Below, in pieces: positions 10,291 through 59,038 of a stretch of DNA of 64,000 bases (its first letter is position 1; every line of letters begins with the position of its first letter). This DNA is from Pseudomonas phage SM1. Under the pieces are notes generated by a model, which worked only from the letters and a program-made list of their open reading frames with translations, was not told the DNA's origin and searched no databases. The stretch lies in sequence record NC_041877.1; one strand, given 5' to 3'. The translations under genes were made by a program, and so were the position numbers.

Positions 10291-10300
10291 GGAGAGAGCA

Positions 10301-11257
10301 ATGGCATTCAGTCAAGGCCAAGCGGCCAACTTCAACGACCTTCTGGATAAGCTGGTCGCGTTCCTCACTACCAATCCGGACTTGGTTGCAGCCGGGCAGG
10401 CGTATGAGGTGCTATACGATCAAACCTTGCCGTATACCGGCCAGGAAGTATCGGGACTTAACCGCCGGCACGTAGCGTTCAGGTCCAAGGGGCTGTCTGG
10501 TCTGGATCAGATTTATACCGCTATCTCCACGGCGGCGAACACGGCTACCGACTACTACAACTGGCGGATCATGGGCGGTACGGGGCTTAACCTGTCCGCC
10601 CTTACCCCGGGGTTCCGGGACCTTACGCAGGGCCTGATTAACCCATGCCCGTTTACCCAGGGTGGATGCTTCTGGAACCAAGCCATGCCGTACTGGTTCG
10701 TAGCCAACGGTCGTCGTTGGTGGGTGACTGCCAAGGTATCGTCGGTCTTCACCACTGTAGGGGCGGGATTCATCCTGCCCCCCTGCCCGCCGGACGAGTT
10801 CCCTTACCCTCTAGCGGTTTGGGGCTCCCACACTGCGTACGAGGGCGTTCGCTGGTCGGATTCCTCTTCGAATCACTCCAGCCCCACGATGGGTCGGGCA
10901 GCCCTGCGTACTCCGTCCGGGCAATGGTGGGACTTCTATGGCGGTATGGGCGGACCGTACGCGGGGCTTCGTTGCGTAATGCCTACCGGACGCTATGCCC
11001 CGGACCAAGCCGCGCGAAACCGGCTATTGCTCGTACGTGATGCCCTGGATGGTAGTTTCCCTCTACTGCCCGTAGCGTTGCTGGTACGCGACTCGCAGGG
11101 GAGTATCCCTTTCGGCGAGGCTGACGGGTTGTTCTGGGTGCCTGTTCTCAACAACGGCTCAGAAGACACGATTGTCGCCAACGGCGCCACTCATGTGGTG
11201 TTTCAGTCTGCGTTCCGTACCGATTCTCCTAACCTACTCGCACTGAGGGCTAACTAA
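10301..11257 (+). CDS. tail protein (distal tail/baseplate region)
   Basis: Start at RBS ggagagagca-ATG just after the TMP stop. The track ORF 10097 start lies inside the TMP and was rejected. Confidence 0.5.
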   Translation: MAFSQGQAANFNDLLDKLVAFLTTNPDLVAAGQAYEVLYDQTLPYTGQEVSGLNRRHVAFRSKGLSGLDQIYTAISTAANTATDYYNWRIMGGTGLNLSALTPGFRDLTQGLINPCPFTQGGCFWNQAMPYWFVANGRRWWVTAKVSSVFTTVGAGFILPPCPPDEFPYPLAVWGSHTAYEGVRWSDSSSNHSSPTMGRAALRTPSGQWWDFYGGMGGPYAGLRCVMPTGRYAPDQAARNRLLLVRDALDGSFPLLPVALLVRDSQGSIPFGEADGLFWVPVLNNGSEDTIVANGATHVVFQSAFRTDSPNLLALRAN

Positions 11258-30874: not shown

Positions 30875-32152
30875 GTGACAGTAGGTCTTAATTTCCTTGC
30901 TACCGTTGTGGCCTCCGAGACAGGATCATCCCTAGCTAGGCTGGAGGAGGATTTGTTTGTAGGTGAGCAGGAGCAGGCTGCTTTCGAGTTCGTGCGCCGC
31001 TACTACCGGCAGTACCGGTCCGTCCCTGACGCCAGGACTGTGCAGGAGCATACCGGGGTACGGCTGCCTACTCCTCGGGGGGATGTCGAATTCCACCGAA
31101 ACAATCTGTATGACCGTCGCACGTTTGACGTGATCCGCGATACGTACTCAACCCTACGCGATGCGATAGGTACGCGGCAGCCCGCCCCGGCTATTCAGGC
31201 CCTTGAATCCGGGCTGCGGCGCGTACGTAGCACACAGCGTAATGCTGGACTGGTAGACCTTGCCCAGGGCATGGCGGAGGTCCGCCAGCGCCTTGTACGG
31301 GTGCAAGCCATGGGAGGTATGTCGGGGGTTCCAACACCATGGCCCACTCTGAACGCAGAGACCGCAGGTTACCAAGACTCGGACCTCATCACGTTTGTGG
31401 GTCGTATGGGTACTGGTAAAACTATGACCCTTCTCTGGCAGGCCAACCACGTCTACGAGGAAGGCTACTCCGCATTGGTAGTTACAACCGAGATGGGGTC
31501 GGAGCAGATAGCTCGCCGATGGATGGCGATGCATTACGGCCTGGATGCCAAGATGCTGAAGTCCGGCATGGTCTCTACTCGACTTCTACGTCAGATAGAA
31601 CAGTACGAAGCTGAGTTGCTGGGGCGAGAGCGTTTCCGGATTCTGTCGCTCGGCACCGGGGCGCAGATATCACAGATTGAGGCGGCAGTGGAGGAGTTAA
31701 GTCCTGATATCGTATTCATCGACGGTGCTTATTTGCTCAAACCGAGTAAGCAGAGCCGACCGCTCAACCGTAATGAAACAGCCGCTTATGTGTTTGATGA
31801 GATAAAGCAGCTAACCATCGACACTAACCGCCCTTGGGTAGTCAATACCCAGTTCAACCGCGCAGCGGGCAAGGGCGGTAAGGATGGCACCCTGGAGTCC
31901 ATCGCTATGTCCGATGTGATTGGTTATCACAGCTCGATTGTAGTAGCAGTAAAGCACGGACCCACGGAGAACCCGTATGAGTCTCGTGAGCTTGATATTC
32001 TCAAAGGACGGGAAGGGGAATTCGGGTCATTCTTTACGCACTACCGTTTCAAGCCTGCAAACCTCAACGAGATGACGGCGGAGGAGGTTGAGGCCGTGTC
32101 GGCTGGTCCGGCGGCTGCCGAAGAAGACGATCAAGGATACGCTTGGAGGTAA
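30875..32152 (+). CDS. replicative DNA helicase, DnaB family
   Basis: Walker A GRMGTGKT and Walker B IVFIDGAYLL. DnaB N-terminal-like domain. RBS ggaggtg plus GTG. Confidence 0.8.
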   Translation: MTVGLNFLATVVASETGSSLARLEEDLFVGEQEQAAFEFVRRYYRQYRSVPDARTVQEHTGVRLPTPRGDVEFHRNNLYDRRTFDVIRDTYSTLRDAIGTRQPAPAIQALESGLRRVRSTQRNAGLVDLAQGMAEVRQRLVRVQAMGGMSGVPTPWPTLNAETAGYQDSDLITFVGRMGTGKTMTLLWQANHVYEEGYSALVVTTEMGSEQIARRWMAMHYGLDAKMLKSGMVSTRLLRQIEQYEAELLGRERFRILSLGTGAQISQIEAAVEELSPDIVFIDGAYLLKPSKQSRPLNRNETAAYVFDEIKQLTIDTNRPWVVNTQFNRAAGKGGKDGTLESIAMSDVIGYHSSIVVAVKHGPTENPYESRELDILKGREGEFGSFFTHYRFKPANLNEMTAEEVEAVSAGPAAAEEDDQGYAWR

Positions 32153-32154
32153 TT

Positions 32155-35061
32155 ATGGCATTTGATGAAACACTATGTGATGGCTGCCCGATCCAGGGCG
32201 AGTTCACACCGTACCGTGGCGTAGACGGGAACGAGGATGCCCCCTACCTGATAGTTACAGATTTGCCTAGCCAAGCTGGCGCGAGAAAAGGCCGCATGCT
32301 TCCCGCCAATCAGGGCAAATTGCTCGCTAAGTGCCTGAAGGATGAAGAGTTCGATACAGCGGATTTCCGCCTAGTTCCTATGTGCCGTTGCCCGTACAAC
32401 AAGGATTCCTACAAGACTGCTTTCAAGAAGCAGATTAACCGCCACTGCCGGCGGCACCTAGAAGATTATATCGACGAGACCAAGCCGGCTGCGATTATCA
32501 CGCTGGGGGCAGATGCCACCGGTCAGGTGATGAACAAGAACGTCAAGATCACCAAGGTACGCGGCCTAGCGCATCACTCTGAGGAGTTTGGGGTACCGGT
32601 ATTCCCGATGCAGTCTATCGCCGTAGCGGTTAACTATCCTCAGAACGAGCCGTTGCTAGCCGCAGACTGCGCGAGTTTTGGCCGTCTTGTAGATGCCGAT
32701 CTAGATATCGATACCGCTGACGCCTTCACCACCGGGGAATACACGCTGGTAAAAGACCTGCAATTCCTCATCGATATGGACCCTGAGATTCTGTCGTTCG
32801 ATACTGAGACTACTGGATTGCGTTGGTACCAACGTGGCGTCGATGTACGGAGCTACCGTAAGCACCTTCATGAGGGCAAAGCTTGGTTTCAGCCGCGTTT
32901 CCAGATACTCACTATGCAGTTTACCGTCGAAGCTGGCAAATCCTACGTACTGGCCTGGGACCACCCGGAAGACCCAATACCGGAGGAGGATAAACCTCGC
33001 CTGCGTAATCAGCTCCGCCAGTTGTTATGTGCGCCTAATCGGATAGTGGTAGGCCAGCGTCTCAAGTTCGATAACGTAGCTTTGTGGATGACCGAGGGCA
33101 TTCGCTTCCGCATCGGCGGCGATACTTCGATGATGGCTGCTATCGTGGACGAAAACCTACCCGAGAAAAACTTGGACGTATTGACCAAGCTGTTCGTGAA
33201 GGATATGGCCGGGTACGCGGATCGGTTCAATCAAATCGTGCAGAAAGATCGGATGTGGGAGACCACCTTGGATAGTCTTGTCCCCTACGGCGGTGGGGAT
33301 ACCGATGCGGTTTTTCGTCTATACCATATTTTGGAGGACAAGATCGCGAGCGACGAGGGGCTCTGGACTCACTACACCCAGGTCTCCATCCCTGGCCTGA
33401 ATGCCATGGCTCGCATCGAAACCCATGGTATGTATGTGGACATGGAGGAGGCGATGCCGCAGTTCCAGGCCTACATGGAGGAGGAAGTTGAGAGGCAGCG
33501 GCTTAGCTTGCTTTCGCAGCTTGACCGTGGCTTGAAGCGGGATGTGGTAAGGGACTTTTTGAGCAAATCCCAGAATAAAAATAAGTCCGCGGAGGAGGCG
33601 CTGTCTTTCGGGCGAACTGATTTCCTGAAGGAGATTCTGTTCTATCACCCGAAAGGGTTCCGGCTCAAACCGGTAGTCTTTACAAAGACTACTGACAAGC
33701 TGGAGGACCCGAACCTAAAAGAACCAAGCACCAGTTCGAAAGACCATCTTCCGTTCTTCTTCGACACATGCCCGTTCACGCTGGAGTTGGCCCAGTATGT
33801 GAAGGATAAACGGATGTTGGAGACGAACATCCTGGGTTTCCAAGAAAAGTTCGTCGTAGACGGTATGGTGCGCCCTACCTACTATCTGGATGTCACGGTG
33901 ACCCGACGTACGGCATCTCGCGACCCCAACGGGCAGAACTTCCCGAAGCGCGGCAAGAAAGCCAAGATGTACCAGAAATCCTTTGTGGCGCCGAGGGGGT
34001 GGGTCATCATCTCTTGCGACTTGTCGCAGGCTGAGCTGCGTATTGCGGGGGACATGGCTCGTGACCCAGAGATCATCCGTATCTACAACGAGAATGGGGA
34101 CATTCACATAACCACGGCATGTATCGTGGCCCGCATTAGCGAGGAGGAATTCCATAGACTGCCCGAGGAGCAGAAGAAGGACCTACGTACTAAAGCGAAA
34201 GCGGTGAACTTCGGTTTCCTCTATGGCATGTCTTGGCGGAAGTTCATCATTTACGCCAAAACCCAGTACGGCGCGGTATTCACTGAGCAGCAGGCGAAGC
34301 GTATTCGTACGGATTATTTCCGCCGCTACAAGAATCTGGAGGTATGGCACAAGAGAGTACGGCAGATTGTACAAGAGCGGGGATGGATTCGGTCTTACTC
34401 AGGTCTTATCCGCCATCTCCCTACCGTGTGGAGCCATGAGGAGTACATCCAGGCAGAAGCTATTCGCCAGGGCATTAACAGCCCTGTGCAGGAGTTTGGC
34501 TCGACCCTCGGGGTTATGGCCCTGGGTCGCATGGACGAGGAGTTGGACCCAGAGTACATCAAGCTCATTGGTTTTGTGCATGACGCGATTTATGCCTATG
34601 TCAGGGAGGAGCATGTTGACTGGGGCTTGAAGACCTTGAAGCGCTACATGGAGACCAACCCGCTGGAGGAAACTTTCAATTTGCGCATGCGTATCCCGAT
34701 TGTTGCGGATGCTTCCTTCGGCTGGAATCAGGGCGAAATGTTCGAGTTGAGTAATTTCCGTCTCGACGAGCCTTATGACTTCTCGACAATCCAAGACAAG
34801 GAAGGTAGGCAGCTGTTCGAACTTCCAGAGCAGGTCGCTCCCGCTAATGATGGTTACTTGGTCGGTTCACCGTACACGGAGCCTGATGAGTTTGAGGATG
34901 AGAATGTGGTCTCCATCGCTCGCGTCCGCCGGATACGCGGAGCCAGTGTGAGTAGCACAAAGAAACAGGGCCACCGGAAAGGTCAAGCGCCGGTCAAAGT
35001 GCGTTTCGCGGAAGATAGCGAGACAGCACCAGCAACCTCGCGCATCCGTAGGAGCAGGTAA
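32155..35061 (+). CDS. DNA polymerase I (family A) with 3'-5' exonuclease and N-terminal UDG-like (family-4-like) domain
   Basis: Exo I FDTETTGL. Pol motif A ISCDLSQAELRIAG, motif B RTKAKAVNFGFLYGMS and motif C VHDAIYAY. The N-terminus CDGCPIQ...LIVTDLPSQ..KGRMLP..QGKLL resembles the UDG family 4 core. Confidence 0.9.
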   Translation: MAFDETLCDGCPIQGEFTPYRGVDGNEDAPYLIVTDLPSQAGARKGRMLPANQGKLLAKCLKDEEFDTADFRLVPMCRCPYNKDSYKTAFKKQINRHCRRHLEDYIDETKPAAIITLGADATGQVMNKNVKITKVRGLAHHSEEFGVPVFPMQSIAVAVNYPQNEPLLAADCASFGRLVDADLDIDTADAFTTGEYTLVKDLQFLIDMDPEILSFDTETTGLRWYQRGVDVRSYRKHLHEGKAWFQPRFQILTMQFTVEAGKSYVLAWDHPEDPIPEEDKPRLRNQLRQLLCAPNRIVVGQRLKFDNVALWMTEGIRFRIGGDTSMMAAIVDENLPEKNLDVLTKLFVKDMAGYADRFNQIVQKDRMWETTLDSLVPYGGGDTDAVFRLYHILEDKIASDEGLWTHYTQVSIPGLNAMARIETHGMYVDMEEAMPQFQAYMEEEVERQRLSLLSQLDRGLKRDVVRDFLSKSQNKNKSAEEALSFGRTDFLKEILFYHPKGFRLKPVVFTKTTDKLEDPNLKEPSTSSKDHLPFFFDTCPFTLELAQYVKDKRMLETNILGFQEKFVVDGMVRPTYYLDVTVTRRTASRDPNGQNFPKRGKKAKMYQKSFVAPRGWVIISCDLSQAELRIAGDMARDPEIIRIYNENGDIHITTACIVARISEEEFHRLPEEQKKDLRTKAKAVNFGFLYGMSWRKFIIYAKTQYGAVFTEQQAKRIRTDYFRRYKNLEVWHKRVRQIVQERGWIRSYSGLIRHLPTVWSHEEYIQAEAIRQGINSPVQEFGSTLGVMALGRMDEELDPEYIKLIGFVHDAIYAYVREEHVDWGLKTLKRYMETNPLEETFNLRMRIPIVADASFGWNQGEMFELSNFRLDEPYDFSTIQDKEGRQLFELPEQVAPANDGYLVGSPYTEPDEFEDENVVSIARVRRIRGASVSSTKKQGHRKGQAPVKVRFAEDSETAPATSRIRRSR

Positions 35062-44201: not shown

Positions 44202-45551
44202 ATGGAAGACACCATGGCACAGACCAAGCCCAAGACCGCCCCGGTCGTGGAACAGGCGGAACAAGAAATCGTAATCGGCAGCCGAGTCAAGTTCCTCGGC
44301 TACGACGAGCAGACCAAGGAAGAGGATCGTATCCTCGAAGACGGCGGCATCTACCTCGTGGTCGGCTTCGAGCCGGAGCAGGAAGGTGACGACGATGAAA
44401 CCCTGCCGGTCCTTCAGGCGCCGAACCCGGGCTTCAATCCGAAGAAGAAGAAGCACCCGGAAACCAACCCGGAATTCCTCGAAGTCGTCTGCTTCCCCGA
44501 GGAAGTAGAGCTTTCTGACGAGGCCGACGAGGCCGAGGAAGAAGCCGAGGAAGAAGAAGTCGAAGAGCAGCCGGAAAAACCGGCGCGCGGCGCCAAGGGT
44601 AAGGCCGCCGACAAGGGCAAAGCTGCCGACAAGGGCAAGGCGCCGGCCAAGGGCAAGGCTGCCGAAAAAGCGCCGGCCAAGGGCAAAGCAGTGGCCAAGC
44701 AGGTCGAAGAAGAGCCGGAAGACGCGGGCGACCCGGTACTGGCCGACGTTCCCGATCTGGAGCAGGAAGACCCGTCCGTTCTCGATCTGGTAAACGACAA
44801 CGACGATCTGATCGCTGCCGTCCAGACCATGGAAAACGAGATCGCCACCACCGAGTTCCAGATCGGCGGCATGCTGTACCACATCAAGCGCGAAGTGCCC
44901 TGGCGTGACATGGACCCTGCCTACGCAGAGCAGGGCGGTTGGGGCAAGTTCGTCGAGGCCTACTTCAACCTCGGCGCGCGTAAAGCCACCCAACTGATCG
45001 CGATCTACGTTCAGTTCAACCAGGCCGGCATCGCCAACCCGTCGGAAGTCGTATCGACCCTCGGCTGGTCCAAGGCGGCCAAGCTGTGTGGCTACCTCAA
45101 CGAGGAAGGCGTCGATGCCGGCGAACTGATCGAACTCGCAGGCGAGACCGCCACCAACGACCTGTCCACGGTCCTCAAGGAGACCTACCGCGAAGGCGGC
45201 ACCGGCGGCACCCCGGGCGAGAAGAAGGTGCGGGTTAAGGTGAACCTGTCCTTCGAGCAGGAGAAGGGCGAGCTGGTTCAGGACATCATCTCGGAAGCCG
45301 TCTCCACCTTCGGCGCGGCCACCGAAGAAGAAGCTCTGTTCCAAGTTCTCGTCGAGTGGCGCGCCAGTAACACCGCCGGCGGCGCGGCTGTCGATGCCAA
45401 AGAGAGCGGCAAAGAGGTGGCAGAAAAAGCGGTAGCGGACGCCAAGGCCAAGCGCGCCGGCGCCAAGCCCGCTTCGAAGCCCGCCGCCAAACCGGCAGCC
45501 AAGCCAGCGACCAAACCGGCGACCAAGCCGGCCAGCCGTGGCCGTAAATAA
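44202..45551 (+). CDS. hypothetical protein with acidic segment and histone-H1-like (K-A-A-D/K-G-K-A) repeats
   Basis: Repeats GKAADKGKAADKGKAPAKGKAAEKAPAKGKAVAK and a C-terminal AKPA repeat. Followed by a terminator. Confidence 0.5.
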   Translation: MEDTMAQTKPKTAPVVEQAEQEIVIGSRVKFLGYDEQTKEEDRILEDGGIYLVVGFEPEQEGDDDETLPVLQAPNPGFNPKKKKHPETNPEFLEVVCFPEEVELSDEADEAEEEAEEEEVEEQPEKPARGAKGKAADKGKAADKGKAPAKGKAAEKAPAKGKAVAKQVEEEPEDAGDPVLADVPDLEQEDPSVLDLVNDNDDLIAAVQTMENEIATTEFQIGGMLYHIKREVPWRDMDPAYAEQGGWGKFVEAYFNLGARKATQLIAIYVQFNQAGIANPSEVVSTLGWSKAAKLCGYLNEEGVDAGELIELAGETATNDLSTVLKETYREGGTGGTPGEKKVRVKVNLSFEQEKGELVQDIISEAVSTFGAATEEEALFQVLVEWRASNTAGGAAVDAKESGKEVAEKAVADAKAKRAGAKPASKPAAKPAAKPATKPATKPASRGRK

Positions 45552-45577
45552 CGCCCGGCGCATCCTGTAACCCCGAA

Positions 45578-45607
45578 GGGGCTCTCCATAGCGGGGAGCC
45601 CCTTTTT
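45578..45607 (+). terminator. rho-independent terminator GGGGCTC-(11)-GAGCCCCTTTTTCTTT
   Basis: GC stem plus T tract. The junction sequence is nearly identical to terminator 3800-3826 plus its downstream RBS. Confidence 0.6.
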
Positions 45608-45624
45608 CTTTGAGGAGAGAAAAC

Positions 45625-46335
45625 ATGGCTCTACAACGTAGCCGGCGCTCGGCGTCTTCGTCCAAAACCAACGCGAAGCCCCGACGTGCGGCTGAGCCCG
45701 TACGGATCAAAATCGACTATATCCCTATCGAGGAGATTGTCCCCTACGAGTTCAACGCCCGTAACAATGAGCAGGCCATCGAAGCGGTCAAAAAGTCTAT
45801 TCAGCAATTTGGCTTTCTGAACCCGATTGTCCTCGACGAGAACAACGTGCTGGTCGCGGGCCATACGCGAACGGAAGCGGCCAAGCAACTAGGCTATATC
45901 GAGCTTCCGTTCGTAAGCGCAGCCCACCTTACTCCGGAGCAAGTACAGGCCTTCCGCCTCGTAGACAACAAAGTAGCTGAGATTGCTACATGGGATGACG
46001 CACTCTTGGCGCAGGAAATGTATGCGATCAAGGAGATGTTTGATTTCACTGATTTCGGTTGGGACGCGGCAGAGATCGATTGCCTGGGCCAGCTTGTTTC
46101 TGACGATTGCCTACTCACTGCTGGTCTAGCTACGCCGGAGGAGGATGAAGAAGGTAGCGCCCGCCTTCCTGTGCGGCGTTCCCCGGCAACTGCGCGTATT
46201 GTGATCGGAGAGTTCGTCTTTTTCCGTCCGGCATCCTCAGTTCGCAATTTCCTCGACGGTCTGCGGCGTGCCCACAACGCCGACAGTGCGGCGATGGAAG
46301 AGGATATCGCTAACCGGCTTGGGCTACTGGATTAA
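45625..46335 (+). CDS. ParB-like nuclease-domain protein (ParB/Srx fold)
   Basis: IEEIVPYEFNARNN...IVLDENNVLVAGHTRTEAAKQLG is a ParB N-terminal domain signature. RBS gaggaga. Confidence 0.65.
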   Translation: MALQRSRRSASSSKTNAKPRRAAEPVRIKIDYIPIEEIVPYEFNARNNEQAIEAVKKSIQQFGFLNPIVLDENNVLVAGHTRTEAAKQLGYIELPFVSAAHLTPEQVQAFRLVDNKVAEIATWDDALLAQEMYAIKEMFDFTDFGWDAAEIDCLGQLVSDDCLLTAGLATPEEDEEGSARLPVRRSPATARIVIGEFVFFRPASSVRNFLDGLRRAHNADSAAMEEDIANRLGLLD

Positions 46336-46345
46336 GGAGCACCAA

Positions 46346-47902
46346 ATGGCACTTCGTCAGCGCCGCACCAGGGTGAGTGCAGCCGATAAACTTACCTCGA
46401 TTACTGTCGTCAATGTACCTACGGAGAACCACTCGCCCGACATCAAGAACCCGCGAAAGGCGGACCCTGCGCGTCTGGGCCTGCTTCGGTTGTCTATCGT
46501 CAAATTAGGGTTCCTGATGCCGATATTCGCGCGAGAACAGGACGGAACTTTGTTGTCTGGGCACCAGCGACAAAGGGTATGCCTGGAGGCGGGAATCCCC
46601 ACCATGCCGACCGTGTACGTATCGCTCACGGAGCAGGAGATGATGGGTATCAACATACTCTTCAACCGCGTCACCAACGACTTCAGTGCTTTCGACACAG
46701 GCAGCACCGGAGTGGCCCGGATCAACATGAAACAAACACTGGAAGCGCTGGAGTCTTTGCCCGACTGTGACTTCAGTAACTTCTATGCAAACGCTTGCAA
46801 AAACGAACCGATCAAAGTATTCGCGGCGGGTTGCGTAGACCAGTACGATAAAAAGGCCATTGTCACCGCCGGGGCGTTCGTTCGAATGGGGGTCAAAATC
46901 CCACTCGTAGTCAGTGAGTCTGGGGAGGTAGTAAATGGGGTCCACCGCCTATTCGCCGCTATTGAGAAGGGTTTGGATCAGTGGCCTGTAGTCCGTATCC
47001 CGGATCGCATCGCCGAGGTCGCTAAGATTGTTCTCAACTACCTGAGCATGGACTTCCACATCGACGAGGACTTCAAGGACCTTCTCCGTGGTGGTGCCTT
47101 CCGGCGAGTTTCAAATAACCGAGGTTTGGTGCCGAAGAGTTTTCGTTTCTGGGCCAATGGCGAACGATCTCTACTTGACAGGGATAGCTACAGCACGGAG
47201 TTTTGGCTACGTTTCCGTGAGATACATGGTAACTCCATTCTCGATTTCGGAGCTGGGCTTTGCCGTGTAGCCCCCTACCTGCGGACCAAGGGATTCGAGG
47301 CAATGGATTTCGAGCCCTATCGCGTCGATCCCGTACTTAACGAAGCAGAGCCTAGCCCCGACTATAGCCGGTCCATGGCGAAGCAATTCCTGTCCGCTAT
47401 CGCTGATCCTAGGCACAAATTCGATTCTATTTTTATGTCGGCAGTGATGAATTCGATTCCTTTCCCGGAGGATCGATTGAAGGTATTGGTTATTGTGCAT
47501 GCACTCTGTCGGCTGGATACTTCGGTTTACGGAACGTGCCGAGATATTTCCGATTTCTCCTACGAGTATGGCGGGGTAAGGAACGGTAACTACTTCGTGA
47601 TGGACGGAGAGCCGGGCATACGGTTGGGTGACATCAACTCTAGGCCTAAAATTCAGAAATTCATGACGCAGGACGAAGCTCGTAGCTACTTTGACCGCTT
47701 CTGGAACAAAGTCGAATTTTGGGAGGGTGGCAACGTTTTCTTCTTCCGTTTGTCTGCTCCCAAAGCACCGAATCTGAAAGCTCTGGGCCAGAGTTTGGAT
47801 TTCGAATTTGGCGATCTGCCTTTTCTTGACGGCTCGCGTATGGGTTTAGCTAAAGAGGCTCGTGCGGCTTTCGCAAAGCGATTGGGGCGGGCGATTCCCT
47901 AG
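46346..47902 (+). CDS. fusion: two ParB-like domains plus C-terminal class-I SAM-dependent transferase domain resembling CmoB (carboxymethyltransferase family)
   Basis: ParB motifs LLSGHQRQRV and VVNGVHRLFAA. MTase motif I ILDFGAGL..DFEPYRVDP and the post-II segment FDSIFMSAVMNSIPFPEDRLKVL are close to CmoB ([23 protein letters not shown]). Contains in-frame motif copy at 46785-46800. Confidence 0.6.
   Translation: MALRQRRTRVSAADKLTSITVVNVPTENHSPDIKNPRKADPARLGLLRLSIVKLGFLMPIFAREQDGTLLSGHQRQRVCLEAGIPTMPTVYVSLTEQEMMGINILFNRVTNDFSAFDTGSTGVARINMKQTLEALESLPDCDFSNFYANACKNEPIKVFAAGCVDQYDKKAIVTAGAFVRMGVKIPLVVSESGEVVNGVHRLFAAIEKGLDQWPVVRIPDRIAEVAKIVLNYLSMDFHIDEDFKDLLRGGAFRRVSNNRGLVPKSFRFWANGERSLLDRDSYSTEFWLRFREIHGNSILDFGAGLCRVAPYLRTKGFEAMDFEPYRVDPVLNEAEPSPDYSRSMAKQFLSAIADPRHKFDSIFMSAVMNSIPFPEDRLKVLVIVHALCRLDTSVYGTCRDISDFSYEYGGVRNGNYFVMDGEPGIRLGDINSRPKIQKFMTQDEARSYFDRFWNKVEFWEGGNVFFFRLSAPKAPNLKALGQSLDFEFGDLPFLDGSRMGLAKEARAAFAKRLGRAIP
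46785..46800. repeat. motif copy ATGCAAACGCTTGCAA inside ParB-MTase CDS (Y-A-N-A-C-K)
   Basis: Same family. Confidence 0.8.
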
Positions 47903-47936
47903 CCACTGTAGCTAAGGCGTAGAGACAAGCTGTATA

Positions 47937-47952
47937 GTGCAAGCGTTTGCAT
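47937..47952. promoter_or_regulatory. motif copy GTGCAAGCGTTTGCAT fused to -10-like TATAGT (47933-47938), 16 nt upstream of the cmoA-like start
   Basis: Same family. Confidence 0.8.
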
Positions 47953-47968
47953 TCAAGGAGCGGCGATC

Positions 47969-48706
47969 ATGCTGACAAGAAAAGATGACAGGCCGGTGCA
48001 TATGCCGGCCAACCCAGCTAAGTTTGAATTCGATGCCGAGGTGGCTGCTATTTTTCCGGACATGGCGTGCCGGTCCATACCGGATTTCCTGCGGGCTCAC
48101 GACCTCCATGCGGAGTTATGCAGAGAGTTGTTCGAAGTTGGCCGTAACTCCGTAGCTGACCTGGGCGCCAGTCGCGGCCACTTCCTCGGGGCATTAAGTA
48201 GACGCTACGGTAAAGAGTTCCATGCTTACGCCTGCGACTATTCACTGCCAATGGTTGAGCATCTGCGCAAGGATTTTCCCTGGGCGGATGTGGAGCTGGT
48301 TGATCTGACCGCGCCCACTTTCTTCCATGATCGTCGTACGTATGACGTAGTTAATCTGTCGTACGTATTGCAATTCATCACTCCTGCAATGCAGCGCAGA
48401 GTGCTCGCCAAGGTGGTAGAAATGGTTAGGCCGGGTGGGTTGCTATTTATCGGGTCGAAATACGAGGTGCTTGGACAAGTAGGGGAAATGCTCCATCGTC
48501 AGTACATAGAGTGGAGAATGGAGCGTGGCTACTCTCGTGAGGAGATTGAAGCCAAGACCAAGGCACTAGCCGGAAGTATGTGGCCGCGCACGCGTAATGC
48601 ACTCCTCATCGACTTGAAGGATTTCGGTATGGAGAATATCTCTGATACTACCTACAACATGGTGTTCGGCAATATCGTGTGTCGTAAAGGCGGAGAACGA
48701 GAATGA
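47969..48706 (+). CDS. cmoA: CmoA homolog (carboxy-S-adenosylmethionine synthase family)
   Basis: Full-length similarity to E. coli CmoA. Matching blocks: FDAEVAAIFPDMACRSIP, ADLGASRG, VVNLSYVLQFITP, RPGGLLFIGSKYE and ERGYSREEIEAKTKAL. The first two correspond to FDERVAEVFPDMIQRSVP and YDLGCSLG in E. coli CmoA. A motif copy fused to a -10-like TATAGT lies immediately upstream. Confidence 0.75.
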   Translation: MLTRKDDRPVHMPANPAKFEFDAEVAAIFPDMACRSIPDFLRAHDLHAELCRELFEVGRNSVADLGASRGHFLGALSRRYGKEFHAYACDYSLPMVEHLRKDFPWADVELVDLTAPTFFHDRRTYDVVNLSYVLQFITPAMQRRVLAKVVEMVRPGGLLFIGSKYEVLGQVGEMLHRQYIEWRMERGYSREEIEAKTKALAGSMWPRTRNALLIDLKDFGMENISDTTYNMVFGNIVCRKGGERE

Positions 48707-49545
48707 CAGATCGGACCGAAGATGGGCGTCGCCCAGTTGCGCGCCGCAATTTGCGCCGGGTGCGGGGTGGGGCACGCTTCGCCTCCAACTCTGGCAGTAG
48801 TAACTTGCGAACTCCACGAGATTTCGATGAGCAGGAGCACGATGACGTAGATGACGCCATTGATCCCCTCGCCGTACATCGCGGTGTAGTATCCCGTGCT
48901 CGTGCAGATGATGCCGAGCCTGGGACGGATGTCTCTCCGGCTCAGCGGATGTTTGATGTGCAGCGAAATGCCCCAGCCAGTGTTTCACGGGAATACCGCC
49001 TGAATCTAGTTGGCCGGTTGTTGATGCGCAAGATTCCATTGGATCGGATCGCCCAACAACTGAACGTGTCTGTATCGACGGTAGAGAAAGATAGGGCGGC
49101 CTGGAAAAAGATGCTAGCTGAACGGGCCCGCCAATTCGATGTGAACGAGTACATCGGCATTCAGTCGGAGTTCTACGACGAGGTGAGCGGTCAGGCAATG
49201 CAGATCGCCTCTATGGCAGCGGGTGAGAATGCCGTACCTACGGCCATGCGTTTGGCTGCGATGCGGACTGCGCTGGCTGGCCAAGCCGACAAGACTCGTA
49301 CACTACAGTCTGCCGGCGTATTTGAGGCCGCGCGCTTCCGCCGAACTACGGACGGCTCTGCCATGAGCGATGTACAGATGCTTATGGCTCGGACTATGGA
49401 AGCTCTGGAAGACCTGATGCAGGCTGACGAGCCTCCACCTCCGCCGCCGCGCGGTGGGCCCCCGACAACCCGCCGACGTGACGGAAGCGGTTTCGACGAT
49501 CTGACGTTGGATGACCCGGAGGAAGGGGAGGTTATGGAGCTATGA
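48703..49545 (+). CDS. putative terminase small subunit (HTH DNA-binding)
   Basis: Directly upstream of, and ATGA-coupled to, the large terminase. HTH-like RIAQQLNVSVSTVEKDR. Confidence 0.5.
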   Translation: MTDRTEDGRRPVARRNLRRVRGGARFASNSGSSNLRTPRDFDEQEHDDVDDAIDPLAVHRGVVSRARADDAEPGTDVSPAQRMFDVQRNAPASVSREYRLNLVGRLLMRKIPLDRIAQQLNVSVSTVEKDRAAWKKMLAERARQFDVNEYIGIQSEFYDEVSGQAMQIASMAAGENAVPTAMRLAAMRTALAGQADKTRTLQSAGVFEAARFRRTTDGSAMSDVQMLMARTMEALEDLMQADEPPPPPPRGGPPTTRRRDGSGFDDLTLDDPEEGEVMEL

Positions 49546-51473
49546 ACGTGAGTCCCATGAAGAAAACACGCCGTGTTCAAGCTTTTCTGCGCACCATAGA
49601 AAGCGTGTCGAAGGATATCGATAATGCGTTTTTTGGCCTGCTCTACCGTACGGCCATGGAGCGCATGGTCGATGGGGAGGCTACGCTGTTCGAGTTCCTT
49701 GGGCAGCTAGAGCATATGCCTGTGAGCATTGAAACCTTCCTCGACAGCGCGGAGTTCTTGGGCGCTACTGACTTGGTGATGTGGCCCGAGGTTCGAAAGG
49801 CAATCGTCGAGGAAAATCAGAACTGGTGGCGAGGCCTCGATACCGCTCCTGGCGCTCTCGGTGGGGCCTTTGATACGGCCTGCCTGATGGGTTGTACGCG
49901 TTCTGGTAAGTCTACCCAGGCCATCGTGGGGTTCATGTACCAGCTTCACATTCTGTTGTGTATGAAGAACCCGCAAGGCTGGTACGGGCTGCCCTCCGCT
50001 ACCTCGATTGTCATGGCGATCATGGGCGCCAAACCTCATGTTACCAAGAAAGTGGTTTACGCGCCGATGAAGAAGTATATCGAGCGTATGCCATGGTTCC
50101 AGAAGTATGGAGTACCGGACAAGAATATCGACAGCGAAATGCTGTTCATCGAAAAGAACATTCGTGTTGTGCCGGTAGCGGGTAATGAAGACGCGGTTCT
50201 CGGTGAAGCCTTGATCGCGTGTTTGATTGACGAGATCAACTTCATGAACGTGGTGCAGAAGTCCAAAAAGGCAGAAGTATCCACGGGGCGCTCTGGCGTA
50301 TACGATCAGGCGCAAACGGTCTACGATACCGTGGTACGTCGTCGGCGTGGTACTTTCCCTAAACGGTACCCCCAGATCGGCATCATCTACGCCAGTTCGT
50401 CTACCCGGTACAAAGGTGATTTCACTGATAAGCTGAAGGCGGAGACCGAGAAGTTCAACCATAACAACGTCTACATTTTCAACAAGAAGCAGTACGAAGT
50501 TCAGCCCAAAGAAAACTTCTGCGGAGAGACGTTCCGTCTACTGATCGGCAATGATGTACAGCACGATACTCGTGTTCTAGGGCCGGACGAGGCGGTGCCG
50601 GAGGGGTCCTGGGTAGAGCTGGTGCCTATCGAATATTTGCCGGACTTCCAGCGTAAGCCCTATGACGCCATGCGAGACGTTCTTGGTATATCCTCGAACG
50701 CGATCAGCCCGTTCATCAAAATGCGCTACCGGGTCTACGAGTGCGTTGAACTCGGCCACGAGAAGCGGTTGGAGTCGTTCCTTGAGAAAGATCACGTCAT
50801 TCTTGGCGTTGACGGTATGCCAAAAGTTCGACATGGGCACGTATGCACCAACCCGAGCAAGCCTCGGTACGTCCATATCGACCTGTCACGTACTGGAGAC
50901 CGCTGCGGTGTAGCGATGGTTCGCTTCGACGGGATGAGTAACTTTGAGCGGGCCGGGGACCAGTCAGAGCGGTTGCCGTTGGCTACGGTGGAGATGGCAC
51001 TTTCCATCGAGCCAGATGCGAATAACGAGATTCAGATTGCAGAGGTGCGGTCCTGGGTTCGATCCCTTATTAAAGTGCATGGCTACCCGATTAAAGGCGT
51101 TTCGTACGACGGCTTTGATAGCCGCGAGTCCATCCAGCAATGGCGTAAGGACCGCATGCCGTCCAAGGAGGTTTCGGTGGATCGTACCAGCGCGCCGTAC
51201 AAGCAATTCCGCGATGCACTCTACGACAGGCGTGTAGCCCTTCTCGATGATCCCATCTTGCTGAATGAAATATTGGAGTTGGAGTACGACACGCATAAGG
51301 ACAAGATAGATCACCCGATGATGGGTAGTAAGGACGTATCCGATGCTGTATGCGGCGCGTATTGTAATATGCTGGAACGCCGAAGCACTTGGGCTGCCGT
51401 TCACGAGATCGATGGCGGTGATATGGCCGGCAGGTTCGAAGGCGAACGTTTTGACGATGATCGACGTTTTTAA
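49542..51473 (+). CDS. terminase large subunit
   Basis: Walker A-like GCTRSGKST. C-terminal RNaseH-like nuclease region with conserved acidic residues (HIDLSRTGDRCG...). 643 aa. Confidence 0.85.
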   Translation: MNVSPMKKTRRVQAFLRTIESVSKDIDNAFFGLLYRTAMERMVDGEATLFEFLGQLEHMPVSIETFLDSAEFLGATDLVMWPEVRKAIVEENQNWWRGLDTAPGALGGAFDTACLMGCTRSGKSTQAIVGFMYQLHILLCMKNPQGWYGLPSATSIVMAIMGAKPHVTKKVVYAPMKKYIERMPWFQKYGVPDKNIDSEMLFIEKNIRVVPVAGNEDAVLGEALIACLIDEINFMNVVQKSKKAEVSTGRSGVYDQAQTVYDTVVRRRRGTFPKRYPQIGIIYASSSTRYKGDFTDKLKAETEKFNHNNVYIFNKKQYEVQPKENFCGETFRLLIGNDVQHDTRVLGPDEAVPEGSWVELVPIEYLPDFQRKPYDAMRDVLGISSNAISPFIKMRYRVYECVELGHEKRLESFLEKDHVILGVDGMPKVRHGHVCTNPSKPRYVHIDLSRTGDRCGVAMVRFDGMSNFERAGDQSERLPLATVEMALSIEPDANNEIQIAEVRSWVRSLIKVHGYPIKGVSYDGFDSRESIQQWRKDRMPSKEVSVDRTSAPYKQFRDALYDRRVALLDDPILLNEILELEYDTHKDKIDHPMMGSKDVSDAVCGAYCNMLERRSTWAAVHEIDGGDMAGRFEGERFDDDRRF

Positions 51474-51488
51474 TGCAAGCGTTTGCAC
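51473..51488. promoter_or_regulatory. motif copy ATGCAAGCGTTTGCAC overlapping terminase stop TAA, immediately 5' of SD of dcd
   Basis: Same family. Preceded by TTTTAAT. Confidence 0.8.
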
Positions 51489-51497
51489 GGAGATACT

Positions 51498-52058
51498 ATG
51501 ACCATTCTTTCCTATACCCGTCTTTGCGAAGTAGTGGACCGGGGCTATCTTAGTGGCCTTGAGGATCGGAGCCAGATAAACGCTGCAAGCATAGACGTTC
51601 GTCTGGGTTGCACCTTTCTAGTAGAAGACGCACCTTTCGACGAGGACTATTTCACAGAACCTCCTTTGCTGAATGTAGATTTGGCGGCCAGGGAATCTGT
51701 GTGTTTCAGGGAACATAAGGGACGGATCAGGCTGGAGCCAATGGAATTTGTACTGGCCCATACTGTGGAGCAGTTTAACCTCCCGGACTGGTTATCCTGT
51801 GAATTCTCATTGAAGTCCTCCATCGCCAGGAATGGCTTGGAGCACCTCAACGCGTGTTGGGTGGATGCCGGGTTCAGTAGCTCGGTACTCACCCTTGAAC
51901 TGAAGAACATGACCCGTCATCATGCGCTGGTGCTAAGGCCCGGTATGCTGATCGGGCAGCTCAAGTTCTTCGAGCATGAACCGGTGCCGGAAGAGCAGAG
52001 CTATCGCAATCGCGGTCGCTACAACGGTGATGCTTCGGTGAGCACTATCAAACCGTGA
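51498..52058 (+). CDS. dcd: dCTP deaminase (dUTPase-fold)
   Basis: The N-terminus (ILSYTRLCEVVDRGYLSGLEDRSQINAASIDVRLG) and overall length match the Dcd/dUTPase family. RBS ggagatact. Confidence 0.7.
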   Translation: MTILSYTRLCEVVDRGYLSGLEDRSQINAASIDVRLGCTFLVEDAPFDEDYFTEPPLLNVDLAARESVCFREHKGRIRLEPMEFVLAHTVEQFNLPDWLSCEFSLKSSIARNGLEHLNACWVDAGFSSSVLTLELKNMTRHHALVLRPGMLIGQLKFFEHEPVPEEQSYRNRGRYNGDASVSTIKP

Positions 52059-53958: not shown

Positions 53959-54030
53959 GGGGTGGTAGCTCAGGGGTAGAGCGAGCGTTTTCTAAACGCT
54001 TGGGCGTGGGTTCGAATCCCACTCACTCCA
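53959..54030 (+). tRNA. tRNA-Arg (anticodon UCU)
   Basis: Hand-folded cloverleaf. Acceptor GGGGTGG/TCACTCC (two G-U pairs), D-arm GCTC-AGGGGTA-GAGC, anticodon stem AGCGT/ACGCT with loop TTTCTAA, T-arm GTGGG-TTCGAAT-CCCAC, discriminator A. Confidence 0.75.
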
Positions 54031-54093
54031 TCTAGAAGTTTAGATGCCACGGAAGGCGTCTACCTAGAATTGCTGTAATCCCTTCAAAGGGGA

Positions 54094-54133
54094 AACGTGG
54101 CGGACGGGGGTTCGATTCCCCCCAGCTCCACCA
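54094..54133 (+). other. tRNA-like 3' fragment (T-arm GGGGG-TTCGATT-CCCCC, acceptor 3' strand CAGCTCC, A, CCA) without a matching 5' half
   Basis: Canonical T-loop and encoded CCA. No complementary 5' acceptor (GGAGCTG) within 200 nt upstream. Confidence 0.35.
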
Positions 54134-54457
54134 AAGACATTCTCGGCCAGCACGTTCGTTCCTAGGTGTGAGAAGGTGGCTGCGATACTGCCGGGTGGTT
54201 GCTAGGAACATCATTCGGAAAGTCCAGCTAGAGAGTGTCTCTGATGGGGCTGTTCAGGATTCGACGCCGCGCGTACTTAGCGAAGGCAGCAAGGAAAGGC
54301 GACGCACCTTGACGCGCGCAAATCGATAAACGCCAACGATACTTCGTTCGACGTTCGCCTCGCAGCCTAAACCCCTGCGGAGTGACGGGTAGCCTCCGGG
54401 CTTCCTCCCCCTGCTACGGCTAGTACCCGTAGTTGCCTTGGAACAGAAAGGGGAGGG

Positions 54458-58370: not shown

Positions 58371-58545
58371 CGCATGCCTGCGCGAACTGGCGCGCATCAA
58401 CGGTATGACGGTCAGCGAAGGACTACTGCGACGTACTTTGGAGTTCGTCAAGGTTACCAATTGCAAGGGCTCTATCCCGCTCGGACTGATCGAAGAGTTG
58501 AGCGAGCTGCTCGGTGAGGTGAATGATGTCAGCCGTACTAAGTGA
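58318..58545 (+). CDS. hypothetical protein
   Basis: 75-aa ORF. Overlaps neighbours, so uncertain. Confidence 0.3.
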   Translation: MLDENAGEYGAAMQRGYNACLRELARINGMTVSEGLLRRTLEFVKVTNCKGSIPLGLIEELSELLGEVNDVSRTK

Positions 58546-59038
58546 ATGTGGTTTGTACCGCTACCGGCTAGAACGGAGTGTAAACCTTGGCCGCCCATTT
58601 GAGCCTAGGTCAGTCGCCTTCATAGGGGTCAATCCCTCTACTGCCGATGCTGTATCAGATGACCCTACTATCCGGAAGATGGTCGGCTTCGCCCGGCAAT
58701 GGGGCTATAGCCGTATCCTTGTCGGTAATCTGTTTGCTTACCGCGCGGCAGATGTGCGGGAGTTGCGTCGAGTCTATCTCGATCCGTTCGGGGCCGGAAC
58801 TCTGTTCGAAACCGAGTCTGTCTATCTGCTTGATATTTTGCAAGAAGCGGAGCTGTTGGTACCTTGCTGGGGTGATCGTAAAAAGCTTCCCAGGGTGTTG
58901 CGTGAGCGTGTTATTGACGTTCTCAGCATGCTGCGCCAGCAGCTTAAGCCTGTTTGCCATCTTGGCTTGACCGCTGGGGGAGACCCCAAACACCCGCTCT
59001 ATCTACCATACTCTACGGAGCTACAGCTATGGGAGTGA
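58523..59038 (+). CDS. DUF1643-like protein
   Basis: YRYRLERS...AFIGVNPSTADAVSDDPTIRKMVGFARQWGYSRILVGNLFAYRAADVRELR matches my recollection of the DUF1643 N-terminal signature (LNPSTAD..DDPT..). Not checked against a database. Confidence 0.5.
   Translation: MMSAVLSECGLYRYRLERSVNLGRPFEPRSVAFIGVNPSTADAVSDDPTIRKMVGFARQWGYSRILVGNLFAYRAADVRELRRVYLDPFGAGTLFETESVYLLDILQEAELLVPCWGDRKKLPRVLRERVIDVLSMLRQQLKPVCHLGLTAGGDPKHPLYLPYSTELQLWE

Follow-up and report, generated by a model that had tools for sequence, protein, structure and literature searches.

A CmoA-family gene beside a ParB-fused transferase gene in Pseudomonas phage SM1: a candidate module for carboxy-S-adenosylmethionine-dependent nucleic acid modification

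We describe here a module of three co-oriented genes lying between a terminator-like hairpin and the terminase genes in a 64,000-nucleotide stretch of DNA from Pseudomonas phage SM1 (NC_041877.1); this whole stretch is referred to below as the window. The genes encode a stand-alone ParB/Srx-fold protein, a protein in which two ParB/Srx domains are fused to a class-I methyltransferase fold, and a CmoA-family protein that is probably a synthase of carboxy-S-adenosylmethionine (Cx-SAM). They are arranged as follows.

45625–46335, plus strand: stand-alone ParB/Srx-fold protein, 236 residues, with a GHTR motif (phrog_620, E 1e-52)
46346–47902, plus strand: ParB-ParB-methyltransferase-fold fusion (ParBMT), 518 residues (phrog_5475 over its full length, E 2e-184)
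46403–46684, plus strand: ParB/Srx domain 1 of the fusion, residues ~20–113 (Pfam ParB_N at residues 24–107; ParB and Noc matches in the PDB)
46793–47056, plus strand: ParB/Srx domain 2 of the fusion, residues ~150–237, homologous to domain 1
47057–47215, plus strand: conserved basic linker of the fusion, LNYLSMDF...RR...RFWANG (alignments of close relatives and of diverse members)
47216–47899, plus strand: divergent class-I (Rossmann) methyltransferase fold of the fusion, residues ~291–518 (AlphaFold model)
47969–48706, plus strand: CmoA-family protein, putative Cx-SAM synthase, 245 residues (TIGR00740, PDB sequence and fold matches)

The region from 45600 to 48710 is 100% identical to Pseudomonas phage PA_L9 (PP869205.1, genus Samunavirus, 94 kb) and at least 99% identical to PaMx31, UF_RH6, FBPa45 and the BHU phages. 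All three open reading frames (ORFs) lie on the plus strand and coincide with coding sequences deposited for PA_L9 (PP869205.1) and vB_PaeS_FBPa45; they had been picked out in a preliminary description of this DNA, made from its letters alone, and every motif quoted there is present in the translations. The GenBank annotation of the module is uninformative or wrong (OQ383211, OL343755, OL473897, OL622073, ON857939, PP869205), with its genes labelled as tail fiber, tail assembly or tail tip proteins in UF_RH6 and the BHU phages and as 'DNA replication protein' in PA_L9, and with the ParB-only gene labelled 'type II adenine-specific methyltransferase' in FBPa45.

The 245-residue protein is a CmoA-family enzyme, as the preliminary description had proposed, and its top family, PDB sequence and fold matches are all to CmoA. 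It carries FDAEVAAIFPDMACRSIP, DLGASRG, VVNLSYVLQFITP, PGGLLFIGSKYE and RGYSREEIEAK, and its top NCBIfam match is TIGR00740 (CmoA; 91.7 bits, E 5.7e-26, model positions 13–239 of 239), with the next family following at E 1e-5. The 91.7 bits fall short of the NCBI cut-off of 193.3, as do the comparable 115.6 bits of SpCmoA from Synechococcus phage S-B43, a validated enzyme for which Cx-SAM production has been shown biochemically (PMC12783734). A phmmer search of PDB sequences ranks H. influenzae YecO and E. coli CmoA first, with E values from 2e-16 to 6e-15, and reaches the next match only at 4e-4. The AlphaFold model (predicted local distance difference test score, pLDDT, 95.3) has E. coli CmoA 4GEK as its top Foldseek match (E 1.7e-18, template-modelling (TM) score 0.81–0.87), which is what the preliminary description had expected of such a comparison; the top six PDB matches are all E. 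coli CmoA or H. influenzae YecO (TM 0.78–0.87), and the alpha-keto-acid methyltransferases CysG and BelI rank slightly below them. The CmoA-specific N-terminal and C-terminal elements are kept at full length, and K165 and K198 (E. coli numbering, here and below) are invariant across all CmoA sequences compared. Of the pocket residues, whose conservation was also marked for checking, the positions that bind S-adenosylmethionine (SAM), namely D62, G64, S66, D89 and F137, are conserved in the window protein but Arg199, discussed below, is not. On homology, the protein is probably a Cx-SAM synthase.

The gene immediately upstream encodes the 518-residue fusion, a member of a PHROGs family of unknown function (phrog_5475), with the Pfam architecture PF02195 plus PF13489 and the motifs GHQRQRV, GVHRLFA and FDSIFMSAVMNSIPFPEDRLKVL. 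Its earlier reading as two ParB domains joined to a class-I transferase is borne out by Pfam, by hhalign and by an AlphaFold model (pLDDT 82.9; predicted TM score, pTM, 0.70) in which strands and helices follow an identical order in both ParB domains. Domain 1 scores 27.6 bits against PF02195 (cut-off 26.3) and carries GHQR with the GxxR arginine of Box II, and domains 1 and 2 align with each other over 66 columns (hhalign probability 91.7%, E 7.7e-7). We judged family-wide conservation from 20 fusion members sharing 29–51% identity, in which NPR, SGHQR and FN-x-x-TND of domain 1 and P186, N197, G198 and R201 (NGVHR) of domain 2 are invariant. SGHQR and FN(R)xTND resemble Box II and Box III of canonical ParB proteins. 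One fusion homolog of 891 residues (P0259) has an intein-like insertion of ~370 residues, ending in ...THN and followed by STNDMS, that splits the invariant FNR|(S/T)ND of domain 1; since the insertion sits inside this motif, it suggests that the motif is functionally critical. The stand-alone ParB-like protein, correctly placed ahead of the fusion in the preliminary description, scores slightly under the PF02195 cut-off (26.0 bits) and aligns with domain 1 of the fusion at an hhalign probability of 96.7%. Most related loci have a homolog of it immediately before the fusion gene, and we regard this protein as a candidate partner or activator of the fusion enzyme. A canonical chromosome or plasmid partition ParB, which combines ParB_N with a helix-turn-helix (HTH) DNA-binding domain and a C-terminal dimerisation domain, was considered and rejected, with matches to TIGR00180 of 24.8–25.7 bits (cut-off 58.45) in the N-terminal domain only.

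The transferase domain of the fusion contains motif I (ILDFGAGLC), the acidic motif II residue E323, N369-x-x-P372-F373 following beta4, and an insertion between beta5 and beta6. Across the 20 members the motif I glycines, the ribose-binding E323, N369-x-x-P372-F373, D376-R377, E422 and P434/Q437/K438 are invariant. Judged by its motifs the cofactor site looks intact, and because motif I and E323 are kept throughout the family the domain probably binds an adenosyl cofactor. The fusion family profile found no methyltransferase among PDB sequences and matched only ParB proteins. A phmmer search of 1.84 billion representative sequences with the transferase domain alone, in which a stand-alone relative could have hinted at a known function, returned only 230 relatives. 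The fusion family amounts to ~230 clusters at 50% identity, nearly all of ~500 residues with the transferase domain at the same position; because the relatives nearly all share this architecture or are fragments, the domain is essentially confined to the ParB fusion.

Several identities were tried for this domain and rejected. The preliminary description had called it CmoB-like, but the hhalign alignment with E. coli CmoB is confined to 20 columns about motif I, at a probability of 61%, no CmoB appears among the top fold matches, and neither the N-terminal extension of CmoB nor its carboxylate triad K91/Y200/R315 (PMC10491745) could be mapped on the fusion. The FDSIF...NSIPF block is an ordinary post-beta4 motif of the Methyltransf_11/23 clade, and the CmoB-like reading thus drew on motifs common to that whole clade. 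CmoX, the phage carboxymethyltransferase considered below, has a C5-methyltransferase fold with an SPPC motif and R350; hhalign against SpCmoX gives a probability of 0.8%, and the sequence has no SPPC or Pro-Cys motif. A canonical N6-adenine or N4-cytosine DNA methyltransferase was rejected in turn, with no N6_N4_Mtase or N6_Mtase Pfam match and no such enzyme among the top fold neighbours. When read as N369-S-[IV]-P372-F373, the S-[IV]-P-F segment resembles the (D/N/S)PP(Y/F/W) motif that follows beta4, which is a lead and not a match. The choice between CmoB and DNA methyltransferases posed in the preliminary description thus has neither as its answer, the fold being of a generic small-molecule type. 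Paralogy with the neighbouring CmoA-like protein was also rejected, the two having generic Rossmann similarity only (hhalign probability 35%).

The association of the fusion with CmoA extends well beyond this phage. An iterated profile for the CmoA-like protein was used to scan the ORFs of 70 IMG/VR loci and 31 GTDB genome loci that encode fusion relatives. A CmoA-family gene is present within ~7 kb of the fusion in all 62 assessable IMG/VR loci, and the eight remaining loci all end at the fusion gene or no more than ~350 nucleotides from it. The cultured Gordonia phage Evaa and Aeromonas phage HJ05 both carry the pair, as do 26 of the 27 assessable loci from prophages or metagenome-assembled genomes (MAGs), so that, of 91 assessable loci drawn from several lineages of phages and prophages, 90 have a CmoA-family gene near the fusion. 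These loci represent at least six to eight lineages, with fusion proteins only 29–38% identical, with different terminase types, and with hosts that include Pseudomonas, Aeromonas, Gordonia, Roseibium, other Alphaproteobacteria, Verrucomicrobiota, Chloroflexota and Actinomycetota. The genes between the fusion and CmoA vary (none at all; genes like those for haloacid dehalogenases (HAD), ThyX or dihydrofolate reductase (DHFR); an RNA ligase; or up to 7 kb of others), and the order of the pair is inverted at one locus (L099). In the reverse direction, the contig of one distant CmoA-like protein has the order ParB, fusion, two small genes, CmoA-like, and a CmoA homolog of any kind occurs in only 84 of 50,697 phage records. 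This near-obligate linkage across distant phages, the strongest new evidence presented here, backs the earlier suggestion that the transferase consumes the CmoA product.

The linked CmoA proteins are of two subtypes. TIGR00740 scores fall as low as 50.8 bits in one lineage, and the L069 partner belongs to the canonical type (141.8 bits, R199 present), sharing 45–47% identity with the CmoAs that accompany CmoX in PaBG and Y3. Because both subtypes pair with the same fusion family, we suggest that the fusion needs the product of CmoA and not a particular CmoA protein. At two loci (L068, positions 9645–11032, and likewise L072) genes for an Amidoligase_2 (PF12224) and a GGACT/AIG2-like protein lie between the fusion and the CmoA-like gene. 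By analogy with the phage ligase CmoY they may provide a further modification step, and their presence would make sense if a carboxyl handle were amidated as it is by CmoY.

Other genes recur at these loci. Most lineages outside Samunavirus have, beside the fusion and CmoA-like genes, a gene for a small HAD-like protein (phrog_32036, no Pfam match; N-terminal DLNYT or DLHYT; called 'phosphatase' in Evaa), which is found in 22 IMG/VR loci and 24 of the 31 genome loci and is absent from PA_L9 (examples are L054 2520–2942, L074 from Evaa 2633–3115 on the minus strand, and L069 12183–12707 on the minus strand). In some relatives the insertions between the core genes are of nucleotide-metabolism or RNA-repair type (L029 2800–3579; L037 9929–10576 and 11964–12398; L007 6880–7431; L069 9666–10835), and include by eye ThyX-like (RHR...S...SxR motif), RNase H-like and DHFR-like genes, together with a T4 RNA ligase 1 homolog confirmed by Pfam. 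The sole assessable locus lacking the pair (L092, 8585–11200, on a 154-kb contig of a Puniceicoccales MAG) has ParB, the fusion and an HAD-like gene with no CmoA-like gene; genes resembling AbrB/MazE and PIN toxin-antitoxin components (by eye) come directly after the module, and its makeup suggests a decayed prophage or prophage remnant.

The surroundings of the module in the window include three further features.

45575–45605, plus strand: terminator-like hairpin of 13 pairs, 8 of them G-C, followed by a T run (pattern scan, consensus match only)
48703–49545, plus strand: 280-residue protein with weak HTH matches (HTH_7 and HTH_11, both under the cut-off); the start overlaps the stop of the CmoA gene
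49542–51473, plus strand: probable terminase large subunit (phrog_9 'terminase large subunit', E 5.6e-10)

The hairpin separates an upstream Lys/Ala-rich gene from the ParB gene and, as a predicted terminator, is probably the 5' boundary of the transcription unit; in the same pattern scan the next plus-strand terminator-like site occurs only at 49926, inside the terminase-like gene. The genes are tightly packed, with gaps of 10 and 66 nucleotides and then two 4-nucleotide overlaps into the downstream genes. The position of the 280-residue gene between the CmoA-like and large terminase-like genes is kept in related loci, and its product is possibly the small terminase subunit; in Gordonia phage Evaa the gene following the CmoA-like gene is annotated as terminase. 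Replication and recombination genes lie upstream of the module (a DnaB-like helicase, a DNA polymerase A with a uracil-DNA glycosylase (UDG) domain, a primase, a helicase, RecA, an exonuclease and a RuvC-like resolvase), and genes for a dCTP deaminase-like protein, PhoH and DUF1643 lie downstream. The preliminary description was right about this genome context, in which the family-A polymerase (32143–35061, plus strand) has an N-terminal UDG-superfamily domain (PF03167, E 4.7e-8), the dCTP deaminase-like gene spans 51483–52058, and the DUF1643 protein is encoded at 58523–59038 on the plus strand; we found no connection between any of these three and the module. In every Samunavirus-like locus, by synteny, the ParB gene is directly preceded by the gene for a 449-residue protein (44202–45551, plus strand; phrog_17202, unknown function, no Pfam match). 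The N-terminal half of this protein is acidic, KGKAADKGKA-type repeats are present, and the C-terminus ends in a KPAAKPAAKPATKP tail similar to AlgP/histone H1-like repeats; an AT-skew spike occurs in this region. Further downstream, a permuted (two-piece) transfer-messenger RNA (tmRNA) gene at 54019–54410 on the plus strand adjoins tRNA-Arg(TCT) at 53959–54030; it scores 118.6 bits with Rfam tmRNA_permuted (gathering threshold 47) and 111.2 bits with beta_tmRNA (gathering threshold 84), and its predicted tag peptide is ANDTSFDVRLAA (ARAGORN).

The closest known system is one in which phage CmoA feeds Cx-SAM to CmoX, a homolog of C5-cytosine methyltransferases, to give 5-carboxymethylcytosine (Yang et al., Nat Commun 2025, PMC12783734), which CmoY ligase amidates to a glycine amide in Synechococcus phage S-B43 (PMC12783734). 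The view in the preliminary description that no such natural system had been described is therefore outdated, and Cx-SAM-dependent DNA carboxymethylation is itself already published; what appears to be new here is a different class of transferase beside these recently described systems. ParB-domain proteins are frequent CmoX neighbours (PMC12783734), and phage PaBG has the order ParB, CmoX, CmoA, x, CmoY. The SM1 module resembles this arrangement in that a phage CmoA has a class-I transferase and a ParB-domain protein as neighbours, in the order ParB, transferase, CmoA, and in its proposed logic of phage-made Cx-SAM feeding a DNA transferase. It differs in that the CmoX slot is filled by the fusion gene, whose transferase does not belong to the C5-cytosine methyltransferases and carries the ParB domains in tandem on the same polypeptide, and in that the module is tied to terminase genes; neither CmoX nor CmoY was detected by tblastn in the PA_L9 genome or any related locus. 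Yang et al. report no adenine-N6 or cytosine-N4 (non-C5) carboxymethyltransferase candidates with phage CmoA, and do not mention a ParB-fused transferase or Pseudomonas (PMC12783734).

Other systems share parts of this design. Bacterial CmoA and CmoB, which form uridine-5-oxyacetic acid (cmo5U) at tRNA position 34, likewise pair a CmoA-family synthase with a class-I-fold transferase, which here would use Cx-SAM, although the fusion has no specific CmoB similarity and its ParB domains point to DNA. In the natural-product pathways of TglE/TglF and MccS/MccB, a CmoA homolog is co-encoded with a dedicated Cx-SAM carboxymethyltransferase for a substrate other than tRNA (reviewed in PMC10491745), but those substrates are peptides or a peptidyl-nucleotide in bacteria, and TglF keeps the CmoB residues, unlike the fusion. 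A precedent for the proposed role of ParB is the phage ParB-fold protein ParB176, encoded beside a post-replicative DNA-modifying enzyme, the thymine dioxygenase 5mYOX176, which requires it to act on double-stranded DNA and is activated by it specifically there (O'Toole et al., PNAS 2026, PMC13229309); that enzyme is an Fe/2-oxoglutarate dioxygenase with a separate ParB protein, whereas here the enzyme itself contains two ParB domains, and a third stands alone. A survey of the ParB-CTPase fold (Hocher, Le and co-workers, PNAS 2025, PMC12704722) describes phage-enriched ParB/Methyltransf_23 (PF13489) fusions with no function given, and CmoA does not occur in it. Those proteins have the same PF02195 and PF13489 domains, to which the tandem ParB arrangement and the CmoA linkage are added here. 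We found no paper linking CmoA to a ParB-fused transferase.

We favor, with moderate confidence, a model in which the three genes form a late-operon nucleic acid modification module, most likely one that carboxymethylates phage DNA. That the ParB-fused enzyme uses phage-made Cx-SAM on DNA, in a variant distinct from the CmoX system, is a proposal we hold about equally open to acceptance and doubt. On homology, the 245-residue enzyme would convert SAM and host prephenate into Cx-SAM, and gene linkage suggests that the C-terminal class-I domain of the fusion would then move the carboxymethyl group from Cx-SAM to its target. The domain content, together with the analogies above, is consistent with a role of the stand-alone ParB, and of both ParB/Srx domains in the fusion, in delivering the enzyme to double-stranded DNA or activating it there. 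Expression together with the terminase genes, as their position implies, would mark the DNA before packaging and so may protect it from host nucleases.

Several observations weigh against this interpretation. No carboxylate-recognizing feature could be shown in the transferase domain by hhalign or in the diverse alignment, and arginines conserved in close relatives (R399, R412, R426) are not invariant family-wide. The top fold neighbours of the domain are small-molecule and tRNA methyltransferases, not DNA methyltransferases, and the ParB/Srx fold is not limited to DNA-acting proteins, occurring also in enzymes like sulfiredoxin and SerK (PMC12704722). Because many of the loci are closely related, the linkage of 90 in 91 counts more observations than are independent. 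Our literature search yielded no report of DNA modification in Samunavirus, PaMx31 or SM1. Finally, Arg199 of E. coli CmoA, which forms a salt bridge with the Cx-SAM carboxylate (PMC3663124), is replaced by Thr in the window protein and by Ser, Glu, Ala or Asn in most linked homologs. Because the active SpCmoA has Glu at this position, R199 is unusable as a strict criterion for a Cx-SAM synthase, and as a test of that function we set it aside as uninformative.

The alternative that survives best, although we think it unlikely, is that the fusion is an ordinary SAM-dependent, ParB-tethered DNA methyltransferase and that the CmoA-like protein acts separately, as a SAM drain or to boost cmo5U in host tRNA. 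Phages commonly carry ParB-methyltransferase fusions, which are usually presumed to methylate DNA (PMC12704722; phrog_498 matches), a SAM-depleting side role for phage CmoA has been raised by Yang et al. (PMC12783734), and the lack of an identified carboxylate-binding feature in the transferase domain fits this view. Independent functions would not, however, explain the linkage through varied intervening genes and gene orders, or the pairing with two CmoA subtypes, and neither the motifs nor the fold neighbours of N6/N4 or C5 DNA methyltransferases were found for the domain. The preferred model could also be wrong about the substrate, and somewhat less likely again is a module that modifies tRNA or rRNA as a phage analogue of CmoA/CmoB, with the fusion in place of CmoB. 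The pairing itself is compatible with this, but the absence of specific CmoB similarity counts against it, and the three ParB-fold domains, the terminase neighbourhood and the ParB-CmoX-CmoA parallel all point to DNA. The sole phage tRNA, moreover, is tRNA-Arg(TCT), an isoacceptor that is not known to carry cmo5U.

It is also improbable, in our judgement, that the CmoA-like enzyme has diverged with the loss of R199 to make another SAM derivative or donor, whose group the fusion would transfer. The R199 replacements, the scores beneath the equivalog cut-off in the linked proteins and the closeness of CysG and BelI as fold matches would all agree with such a divergence, but the validated SpCmoA shares both the missing arginine and the low score, the L069 homolog is canonical, and the retention of the CmoA-specific terminal elements is hard to reconcile with it. 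Least probable of all is a packaging or genome-handling role with no modification, in which ParB-like proteins mark DNA for terminase and the methyltransferase fold senses SAM or Cx-SAM, since the cofactor motifs, together with the invariants that follow beta4 and those within the beta5-beta6 insertion, show active-site-like conservation, and since a sensor would hardly justify a dedicated synthase for a rare cofactor.

If the fusion does carboxymethylate DNA, it probably does not do so by CmoX chemistry, because the enzyme is not a C5-cytosine methyltransferase, and its product may be another carboxymethylated base. More tentatively, and with somewhat greater doubt than belief, the fusion family could be a second natural class of DNA carboxymethyltransferase, evolutionarily unrelated to CmoX, which writes a base other than 5-carboxymethylcytosine and depends on ParB for loading onto double-stranded DNA. 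Under that proposal the invariant N/S-x-P-F after beta4 would suggest an N-carboxymethyl purine or pyrimidine as a candidate product, which the lineages with an amidoligase could perhaps amidate further, towards a Mom-like carbamoylmethyl adduct.

Carboxymethylation of phage DNA was first shown in late 2025, and then only at C5 of cytosine by a C5-methyltransferase homolog. The module described here is a concrete candidate for a class of transferase other than CmoX linked to phage CmoA, in a family of ~230 clusters, and its presence in cultured phages, including the P. aeruginosa Samunavirus phages used in therapy work, Gordonia phage Evaa and Aeromonas phage HJ05, makes it open to experiment. 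If our interpretation is correct, the natural DNA base modifications would gain a new member, and DNA labelling a new enzyme scaffold that uses Cx-SAM. The phage-enriched ParB-Methyltransf_23 fusions would also acquire a function, and there would be a second case in which ParB-fold proteins serve DNA-modifying enzymes.

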